32,331 nucleotides of DNA, taken from a virus. The stretch lies in UHGV virus genome UHGV-0737708; one strand, given 5' to 3'. A program made the translations under genes and the position numbers. Of the stretch, positions 14,509 through 15,137 are shown piece after piece (position 1 is the stretch's first letter; every line of letters begins with the position of its first letter). Below the pieces are notes generated by a model. The model was not told the DNA's origin, ran no database searches, and was given only the letters and a program-made list of their open reading frames with translations.

Positions 14509-14982
14509 ATGACTCAACAATTTAAAGATATTTTTACTGGTGGTCTGGTAAGTCTGTTCTATCACGCTGATACCACTAATACCGACCTTGCCGATGAAGC
14601 ATACGAAGAAATTAAAGAGTGTGCTGGTTTTCCTGAATATTCACTGTCTCGCGGTACGGTAGAAGTCAAATCGTATTCTTCTCAGTATAACCGTAAGCTG
14701 GTTGGTAAACTGAACGTTGAAGATCTGACTCTGACCGTTAACTACATCCCAGGTGATGCGGTACACGAGAAGCTCGCAAAAGCTGCCGAAGACGGCACTC
14801 GCTGCCAGATCAAAGTAGAGTATTATGTTGACGCCGGAAAACAGACTGGTATTCGCATTGCTTACAACGGCTTCATTTCTAAAGTTGCTATGAACGGTGG
14901 CGATGAAGAAGTGGTAACTAAAGAGTTTACCTTTGCCGTTGATGGTGCTCCGCTGAAACAGGAAGTGTTTACCGCTGGATGA
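14509..14982 (+). CDS. Putative major tail (tube) protein (157 aa)
   Basis: Position upstream of the chaperone pair and tape measure; strongly optimised codons suggest an abundant protein; TAAGGGGTAATT ribosome-binding site. Confidence 0.6.
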   Translation: MTQQFKDIFTGGLVSLFYHADTTNTDLADEAYEEIKECAGFPEYSLSRGTVEVKSYSSQYNRKLVGKLNVEDLTLTVNYIPGDAVHEKLAKAAEDGTRCQIKVEYYVDAGKQTGIRIAYNGFISKVAMNGGDEEVVTKEFTFAVDGAPLKQEVFTAG

Positions 14983-15107
14983 ACTAACGAAGAACTTCCC
15001 GAACCGGAACCACAGCCGGAACATGAAGCGGTGGTGATTCCAGAAGTAGAAGAAGTTACGGTGAAAGCCACAGCAAAACGAGGCCGCAAGGCTAAGAATT
15101 AATTTTA

Positions 15108-15137
15108 AGCCCTGCCTTAATGGTGGGGCTTTTTTAT
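15108..15137 (+). terminator. Rho-independent terminator, paralogous to the one at 9245..9272
   Basis: AAGCCCTGCC-TTAA-TGGTGGGGCTT followed by TTTTTT. Confidence 0.7.

Follow-up and report, generated by a model that had tools for sequence, protein, structure and literature searches.

The virus genome UHGV-0737708 (32,331 nucleotides; below, the window means this whole stretch of DNA) carries, by gene content and gene order, the structural region of a siphovirus-type Escherichia coli prophage. Two of its virion genes, one for the tail tube protein (TTP) and one for a fusion of prohead protease and capsid protein, end in a UGA stop codon that is followed by an open in-frame stretch, a second stop codon and an intrinsic terminator (Table 1), and these two gene ends, which we read as candidate leaky stops, are the subject of the present analysis. 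Beside its phrog_158 assignment, the TTP gene gave only weak Pfam matches to lambda-like tube proteins; its homologues in relatives are labelled 'phage tail tube protein' by PGAP, and its position is canonical in relatives, ahead of the G/T chaperones and the tape measure gene. The capsid gene closes with GAA TGA at 9102-9104.

The original prediction described the TTP open reading frame (ORF) as ending in UGA with 39 further in-frame sense codons before a UAA, and translation confirmed this. The extension so defined runs from an acidic, proline-rich spacer through VTVKATAK to a basic tip, RGRKAKN. A stop context common to the TTP and capsid genes had also been claimed, and the 16-mer TGAACTARCGWAGAAC indeed has exactly two occurrences in the window, one at each of these stops (0.05 occurrences expected from shuffled sequences, with 0 of 100 shuffles reaching two). 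Beyond the stops, the two regions align at 76% column identity and share GTTACGG(C/T)GAAAGCCACAGC, which encodes VT(A/V)KATA; the predicted motif of VT.KATAK followed by basic residues in both extensions, and the near-identity of the two terminators, held up as well. These terminators are the two strongest terminator-like sites between positions 7000 and 17000 (the one behind the TTP extension folds at -17 kcal/mol, z = -3.6), and at both sites the second stop lies about 4-8 nt ahead of the terminator stem. PGAP leaves both post-stop gaps empty in every relative. TAA closes 28 of the 32 tabulated genes of the window and TGA stands at four gene ends. Since frames that run on open past a stop are not rare in the window (42 codons follow the TAA of 24803-25486, for example), the significance of the two extensions rests on the comparison with relatives and not on the single sequence.

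Table 1. Coordinates of the two gene ends, their predicted RNA structures and neighbouring genes (window positions unless a locus is named)
Feature	Position	Strand	Details
TTP gene stop, candidate leaky signal	14980-14983	+	UGA plus A at +4; GGA TGA at 14980-14982
TTP in-frame extension, predicted readthrough	14983-15102	+	39 sense codons (TNEELPEPEPQPEHEAVVIPEVEEVTVKATAKRGRKAKN) + TAA at 15100-15102
Intrinsic terminator after TTP extension	15107-15137	+	10-bp stem 15107-15131, then TTTTTT
TTP predicted closing stem	14993-15057	+	AACUUC (14993-14998) / GAAGUU (15052-15057); RNAalifold
TTP mini-hairpin	15060-15069	+	GGU-GAAA-GCC, GNRA loop; inside conserved VT.KATAK block
Hairpin in basic-tip codons	15082-15093	+	GGCC-GCAA-GGCU; first pair alternates A-U / G-U
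Capsid extension, predicted readthrough	9105-9242	+	44 in-frame codons ..VTAKATAKKVGRPPKAK + TAA TAA
Intrinsic terminator after capsid extension	9245-9272	+	9-bp stem 9245-9266, then TTTTTT
Capsid RNA structure	9115-9200	+	closing stem AACC.UCUG (9115-9123) / CAGA.GGUU (9180-9188); fold z = -3.4
Capsid inner hairpin	9127-9147	+	
Capsid mini-hairpin	9191-9200	+	GGC-GAAA-GCC
-1 frame capsid peptide site, Proteus	L077 4555-4634		
-1 frame capsid peptide site, Edwardsiella	L019 2770-2851		
TTP gene	14509-14982	+	157 aa; phrog_158 major tail protein, E = 1.2e-20; ends TGA
Protease-capsid fusion gene (prohead protease/HK97-capsid)	7101-9104	+	PF04586 + PF05065, phrog_617; ends TGA-A
Large terminase, gpA-type	3056-4963		
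Portal, lambda-family	5544-7055		
Tail fibre	10919-14452		1177 aa; C-terminus 75-80% DNA identity to gp37 of RB49-like T-even phages
gp38-like adhesin	15151-15657		

The comparison covered the window, 13 E. coli chromosomal relatives (85-95% identity), 45 copies from IMG/VR and more distant relatives. Wherever an extension is present behind either gene, the stop is TGA followed by A (about 60 prophage copies from E. coli, Salmonella and Providencia), namely at both sites in 14 of 14 E. coli loci, in 45 of 45 IMG/VR copies and in the Salmonella and Providencia capsid copies. Family members without the extension always end in TAA, often as tandem TAATAA, directly before a terminator; this applies to the TTP genes of E. 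coli loci L015, L016 and L076 and of Salmonella, Providencia, Proteus and Edwardsiella, and to the capsid genes of Salmonella (L021 and L201), Hafnia, Klebsiella aerogenes and locus L209. A Hafnia-type locus (L199, 5669-5690) has, in frame behind its capsid TAA, the codons GCT AAA TCT AAA GAT TAA (AKSKD), which resemble a basic tail cut by TAA and could be a relic or a different arrangement. Use of TGA as a sense codon (genetic codes 4 or 25) was rejected, as code 11 gives intact long ORFs over the whole window and TGA occurs solely at the four gene ends. An apparent TTP-extension fusion with W at the stop (P0001; L014, ENA contig k141_243218) proved to be an artefact of gene calling under code 4, as the DNA of the 842-bp contig itself reads TGA there, and entries of this kind could mislead hunts for natural sense-codon variants. 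A search with the capsid C-terminus plus extension returned no fused protein.

The regions behind the TGA also bear a coding signature. None of the 37 unique alleles (17 TTP, 20 capsid) has a stop in frame 0, and frames +1 and +2 contain 1-7 stops each over all alleles and 2-4 each in the TTP alleles. The eight length classes, 84, 99, 126, 132 and 135 nt for the capsid extension and 108, 117 and 123 nt for the TTP extension, are all multiples of three, amounting to about 7-8 in-frame indel events with a chance probability of roughly (1/3)^7. Pooled ratios of nonsynonymous to synonymous polymorphism (pN/pS) were 0.66 for the capsid and 0.45 for the TTP extension, values that indicate no more than mild constraint, in keeping with a disordered spacer. 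The tip occurs in at least five versions at the DNA level (KKVGRPPKAK, KKQRKTKE, KRGRKPKE, KRSRKAKD and KRGRKAKN), which differ in sequence and in predicted RNA fold, every one of them being rich in Lys and Arg, and the differences between the Edwardsiella and E. coli peptide homologues fall mostly at third codon positions. Conservation of the frame begins at the first codon after the TGA, and no start codon is conserved within the extension; a mini-ORF overlapping the stop (ATG AAC TAR) was rejected, as it is not conserved among alleles. The capsid tail scored 13.2 bits against Pfam AT_hook (PF02178), below the cut-off of 17.4 (E = 0.088), the TTP tail gave no AT_hook match, and beyond this sub-threshold match no Pfam domain was found in the extensions. 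It is highly improbable, in our view, that we are looking at a neutral relic, in which a longer ancestral gene gained a nonsense TGA and the part downstream has so far not decayed. The constitutive in-frame tails of relatives described below do show that the ancestor could have been longer, but over two loci, about 60 copies, up to 15-20% synonymous divergence and many indels there is no frame break or internal stop, the arrangement is kept in three genera, the TGA has in no case changed to TAA, the default stop of the family, and no decayed copies (with a frameshift or stop in the extension) were seen in otherwise intact prophages.

Basic C-termini recur in relatives, where they are read in frame. 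TTPs without the extension end in ..GLMGRK, ..AAARK, ..LVSRK or ..GLRK, and capsid proteins without it in ..EASKAK, ..TAAKAK, ..AGRSK or ..GETRKAK; longer constitutive tails close the Proteus TTP, which ends in ..THLNLVKEK, and the Edwardsiella TTP, which runs in frame, with no stop, into ..YHMNVIPEAVAAKEK (..VIPEAVAAKEK). The VIPE codons are GTG ATC CCG GAA in Edwardsiella versus GTG ATT CCA GAA in the window, so that third positions alone differ. These in-frame ends indicate that a basic C-terminal tail on the capsid protein and the TTP is a protein-level trait of the family, of which the E. coli lineage, on its sequence, carries a longer version set behind a UGA. Many distant TTP homologues have large in-frame C-terminal additions (proteins of 700-1500 aa), which suggests that the C-terminus is a permissive site for additions, and these would be expected to face outward.

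A different arrangement was seen in Proteus and Edwardsiella, in which the capsid gene stops at TGA and a peptide homologous to the extension (..SEVSVKKAKKAKAE and ..REEVSVKSGRKPKTDN) is encoded in the -1 frame. In both genera the lysine codon of an A_AAG site stands three codons ahead of the stop and is followed by a 7-nt spacer and then by a hairpin, which pairs GAUAUCUCA/UGAGGUAUC in Proteus and GAUACC/GGUAUC in Edwardsiella; in Proteus the -1 frame is open for nine codons upstream, with the A_AAG site. Judged on these two genomes, site, spacer and hairpin may form a bacterial -1 frameshift geometry, again giving a fusion. The GTG that overlaps the TGA there offers a free 21-aa peptide as an alternative, and the same idea can be extended to all sites: a separate small peptide, free or non-covalently bound to the virion, would be made by internal initiation (for instance at GTG 15031/15034) or by termination-reinitiation. 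The 21-codon ORF of Proteus and Edwardsiella, out of the capsid frame and with its GTG inside the hairpin, fits such a peptide, as does the GTG GTG just before VIPE in the TTP extension. We nevertheless hold it to be decidedly improbable: no start codon is conserved among the E. coli, Salmonella and Providencia alleles; a plausible start or Shine-Dalgarno sequence is missing from several of them (the 33-aa L045 capsid and the 25-aa Providencia capsid extensions); the indels in multiples of three and the open frame also lie upstream of any candidate start; an NTG overlapping TGA is expected in 3/4 of genes by chance; and the Proteus and Edwardsiella sites fit the -1 frameshift as well. An IMG/VR scan for more copies of the Proteus/Edwardsiella type yielded chance matches with a 14-mer and, with a gapped pattern, the same Edwardsiella sequence only.

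RNA structure after the UGA was analysed with RNAalifold, run separately on the TTP alleles (16), the long capsid alleles and the short capsid alleles. In all three runs the 5' arm of a stem was placed at column 14, 10 nt after the UGA, closing the variable part, and in all four allele classes a predicted stem starts 10-11 nt after the UGA, with covariation. The closing stem of the TTP region also occurs in AACAAC/GUUGUU and AACAGC/GUUGUU versions, two of its pairs covarying (UA to AU/GU); over the TTP alignment 99% of cells are paired, three pairs are compensatory, and the covariation score was reached by 0 of 500 shuffles (the underlying independent events are few). The TTP mini-hairpin likewise covaries, as GGC/GCC and, in L003 and Providencia, as GGA/UCC. 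At the capsid locus, the inner hairpin pairs CUCUCCCC with GGGGAGAG in Salmonella versus CUUCCCCC with GGGGGAAG in the window (E. coli), the short capsid allele folds into a GAAA-looped hairpin of 11 bp (z = -5.2, one compensatory pair), and the Providencia version forms a 12-bp hairpin at the same distance from the UGA (z = -5.25, A-U to G-C exchange). Rfam returned no family and no selenocysteine insertion sequence (SECIS) at E <= 10 near either UGA; selenocysteine insertion through a bacterial SECIS was rejected on this ground, and also because the loops are of GNRA type and the structures differ between alleles. As far as predicted folds can tell, the region looks like a recoding signal, in which a leaky stop and a favourable +4 base are followed by a spacer and then by a structure, and an RNA-level function clearly coexists with coding.

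The same structures invite the explanation that RNA is all there is, i.e., that the ~120 nt from stop to terminator are a structured untranslated 3' region (an mRNA stabiliser, a processing site or a terminator leader) of the two most highly expressed virion genes, the open frame being a relic. A series of hairpins with several GNRA loops and compensatory changes, the ultra-conservation of GGCGAAAGCC and its flanks in nucleotides across genera, a strong terminator directly after, and the fact that no annotation pipeline calls a gene here would all agree with this. However, it leaves unexplained why indels (about 7-8) come in multiples of three only and why frame 0 alone is open, why inter-genus substitutions favour third positions, why TGA is restricted to copies with the region and why relatives have in-frame fused tails; in addition, three unrelated tip DNAs (KKVGRPPKAK, KKQRKTKE and KRGRKPKE) stay rich in Lys and Arg despite differing folds, and an Rfam match is lacking. 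We therefore regard an untranslated element as unlikely. Readthrough might instead occur with an incidental peptide, the ribosomes that reach the UAA near the terminator blocking its hairpin and thereby coupling leakiness to transcription of the downstream tail genes. The short distance between second stop and terminator stem at both sites and the modest constraint on the peptide (pN/pS 0.45-0.66) are compatible with this coupling, but in relatives that lack the extension the TAA likewise stands a few nt ahead of the terminator, so that the geometry is not special, and both the conservation of the basic tip and the in-frame tails that relatives carry constitutively point to a role at the protein level. 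A late-operon antiterminator would render the coupling needless, and we consider this explanation quite unlikely.

We put the probability at about 65% that the UGA at 14980-14982 and its twin at 9102-9104 are selected leaky stops that yield a minority of C-terminally extended TTP and capsid protein. The UGA-gated in-frame C-terminal extension that had been proposed at the outset gains support from the invariant TGA+A, the indels in multiples of three, the third-position changes, the constitutive tails and the covarying stem; the argument is a comparative one, from which we infer that readthrough occurs, at what level and with which inserted amino acid, as well as a stimulatory effect of the stem and a function for the tail. 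Of the stop codons, UGA is the leakiest (PMC7026636); with A as the next base it is prone to misreading by tRNATrp in E. coli (PMC5289835, citing Engelberg-Kulka 1981), and UGA readthrough is set by the competition of the Trp-tRNATrp ternary complex with RF2 (PMC10570021). Under the proposed mechanism, the majority of ribosomes would stop at the UGA and produce the normal 157-aa TTP or the normal capsid protein, and a minority would decode it through a near-cognate tRNA, for which tRNATrp is the likeliest candidate; the A at +4 would favour this decoding, and so, probably, would the RNA stem whose 5' arm lies 10-11 nt downstream. Ribosomes past the UGA would go on for 39 (TTP) or 44 (capsid) codons to the UAA, with ..FTAG-X-TNEELPEPEPQPEH.. 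(TNEELPEPEPQPEHEAVVIPEVEEVTVK) and ..HISE-X-TSVEPSVPSPDLGEE.. (TSVEPSVPSPDLGEENLIPSQEEESQTVTAK) as the expected fusion junctions of TTP and capsid protein, respectively. The product would be a substoichiometric isoform with a flexible acidic/proline-rich spacer and a Lys/Arg tip, the tip consisting of VT.KATAK plus RGRKAKN in the TTP or of the AT-hook-like KKVGRPPKAK in the capsid protein. In HK97-fold capsids and lambda-type tube proteins the C-terminus points outward, so that the tips would be expected on the virion surface, where they could bind polyanions such as lipopolysaccharide (LPS), capsule, DNA or mucus; as a role for the tail, weak attachment to polyanionic surfaces is the guess that assumes least. 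The terminator would be a separate element of the ordinary kind, marking the 3' end of the two virion mRNAs of highest abundance.

Several observations weigh against readthrough as the function of these sites. The pN/pS values are just moderately below 1. The block GTTACGGCGAAAGCCACA is kept at the nucleotide level between E. coli and Salmonella, though the C-terminal halves of their capsid proteins are only ~52% identical in amino acids, and several hairpins covary; the RNA-level function could be the main one. The spacer of 10-11 nt is at the long end of known stimulator spacings. Invariance of the TGA within E. coli is weak evidence when taken alone, about 40% of neutral A/G sites being variable across the same 14 loci, and neither E. 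coli site yielded a natural variant with a sense codon. The -1 frame peptide with its overlapping GTG in Proteus and Edwardsiella leaves a free peptide as a possible active form.

The original prediction went further and took the extension with its stop context and terminator for a transposable add-on module. This part was not supported by the comparison, in which 45 of 45 true IMG/VR copies stood behind the capsid or TTP gene of this one prophage family. Judging from their sequences, the TTP and capsid copies are paralogues that exchange segments, not a module hopping among unrelated genes: the short capsid allele starts with NNEELPEE like the TTP allele, and a KRGRK(P/A)K tip is found at both loci. 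The analogy that had been drawn with immunoglobulin-like (Ig-like) domains applies to the logic of an added extension and fails for its nature, since the extension is a low-complexity tail of 25-45 aa and not a folded domain. A broader reading, which we hold tentatively and with somewhat less than even confidence, joins these elements. It would make the two sites the first programmed UGA-readthrough cassette in virion genes of double-stranded DNA (dsDNA) phages, a compact RNA and peptide unit (UGA-A, 10-nt spacer, covarying stem, GNRA mini-hairpins and basic tip) that was duplicated between the capsid and TTP genes, with the copies exchanging segments, and that came to be expressed in different ways within one prophage family, as a constitutive fusion, by readthrough or, in Proteus and Edwardsiella, by -1 frameshifting; the charged tips per virion would report host physiology at assembly. 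UGA readthrough in E. coli depends on the tRNATrp/RF2 balance, cyclic AMP (cAMP) and temperature, and it is through this dependence that the number of tips per virion would do so.

The surrounding genes follow a siphovirus plan, with small head-tail genes between the capsid fusion gene and the tail fibre gene and with G/T-like chaperones and a tape measure after the gp38-like adhesin. The fibre and adhesin genes constitute a T-even-type long-tail-fibre module (10919-14452 plus 15151-15657) inside a lambda-like siphovirus prophage; in E. coli the TTP gene and its terminator stand between the two, and in Edwardsiella (L019) and in L209 gp38 comes directly after the fibre gene. Upstream of the fibre gene, a second tail-tube-like gene (10008-10841, 277 aa, with a weak phrog_158 match over residues 16-154) is among the only four window genes ending in TGA (TGA TTC ACT TCC TAA), and its product could be a terminator-like or second tube-like protein. 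ARAGORN reported a tRNA-Glu (anticodon TTC) at 9763-9853 on the minus strand, which at 91 nt and inside the ORF 9528-9998 is probably a false positive and is not a suppressor.

The gene order is common to prophages of E. coli, Salmonella, Edwardsiella, Proteus, Providencia, Hafnia and Klebsiella aerogenes, and among 5426 complete E. coli genomes the TTP module was present in 22 and the capsid module in 53. The cultured phage collection contained no close relative and no match to the module DNA; the nearest cultured relative, Escherichia phage DCP80, has 43-45% aa identity, TAA stops and no extension. Its record (L023, PQ671644.1, 3000-22000) is 141 kb long and classed as Straboviridae, yet includes a siphovirus-like head-tail module, and may be a chimeric assembly or an unusual mosaic. 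A scan of genome contigs with a capsid alignment was uninformative, returning only capsids of 25-28% identity (Pseudomonas, Nitrosospira and others) with a separate downstream protease. A gene with a DUF723/CapR domain sits at differing sites in relatives, in the portal-capsid gap in one (L015, 644-1666) and after the TTP gene in others (L021/L022, 9618-10637), which suggests a mobile, homing-type gene. Insertion sequence (IS) elements, ISKpn26 and IS2, interrupt some relatives (L012, 2328-3308; L013, 5691-6919), which are probably defective prophages; both readthrough modules are intact there.

A full-text literature search, which did not cover all journals, found no report of stop-codon readthrough in capsid or tail genes of dsDNA phages. 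To our knowledge, C-terminal extensions of capsid and tail proteins made by recoding in dsDNA phages are known solely through frameshifting, and stop-codon readthrough in phage virions solely from the single-stranded RNA (ssRNA) phage Qβ. If the proposed readthrough is real, a tailed phage would be using bacterial UGA readthrough as a programmed and conserved means of expression, perhaps with the aid of a 3' stem stimulator, and the prophage family would provide a natural series in which the same tail is made constitutively, by readthrough or by a candidate frameshift, so that the question of why it is substoichiometric becomes directly testable. As annotation pipelines skip the extensions, similar hidden isoforms may then be common.

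Mechanistically, the closest known system is the A1 protein of Qβ (Allolevivirus), in which the leaky UGA of the coat gene is read by host tRNATrp at a few per cent, giving ~5% extended subunits (PMC7026636). Qβ is an ssRNA phage with a folded extension of ~200 aa that is essential for infectivity, whereas the present case concerns a dsDNA siphovirus-type prophage, a low-complexity tail of 25-45 aa, two proteins and a conserved downstream stem. The Qβ coat stop also has A as the next base. Biologically, the Listeria phages PSA, A118 and A500 are closest, because both their capsid (Cps) and their tail shaft (Tsh) proteins are C-terminally extended, by programmed frameshifting, the tail shift taking place at a UGA stop (PMC5009743). 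These phages shift by +1 or -1 into another frame, whereas the window extension is in frame 0 with frames +1 and +2 closed, so that stop-codon readthrough would be needed, and no slippery site was found at the E. coli sites; the capsid variant of Proteus and Edwardsiella may be the frameshift counterpart. T7/T3 10A/10B, SPP1 gp17.1/gp17.1* and lambda-type Ig-like domains follow a like logic, a minor, surface-exposed C-terminal add-on on abundant virion proteins, which is thought to give weak cell-surface adhesion (PMC5009743). Those additions are usually folded Ig-like or FN3 domains made by frameshift or in-frame fusion, whereas the present extensions contain no domain and are gated by a stop codon. 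The UGA signals of alphaviruses, coltiviruses and other viruses consist of UGA, a short spacer and a large, phylogenetically conserved 3' stem-loop that stimulates readthrough (PMC3159437), a layout like the one predicted here. These signals work on eukaryotic ribosomes, typically with C as the +4 base, in contrast to the A at +4 found here. We know of no description so far of a 3' stem that stimulates readthrough in bacteria. As for the tip itself, KKVGRPPKAK and KRGRKPKE share with AT-hook and histone H1-like tails a GRP or RGR core flanked by Lys/Arg, and KKQRKTKE and KRSRKAKD, unlike an AT-hook, are without the GRP core, which suggests that the conserved property is positive charge and not a motif.

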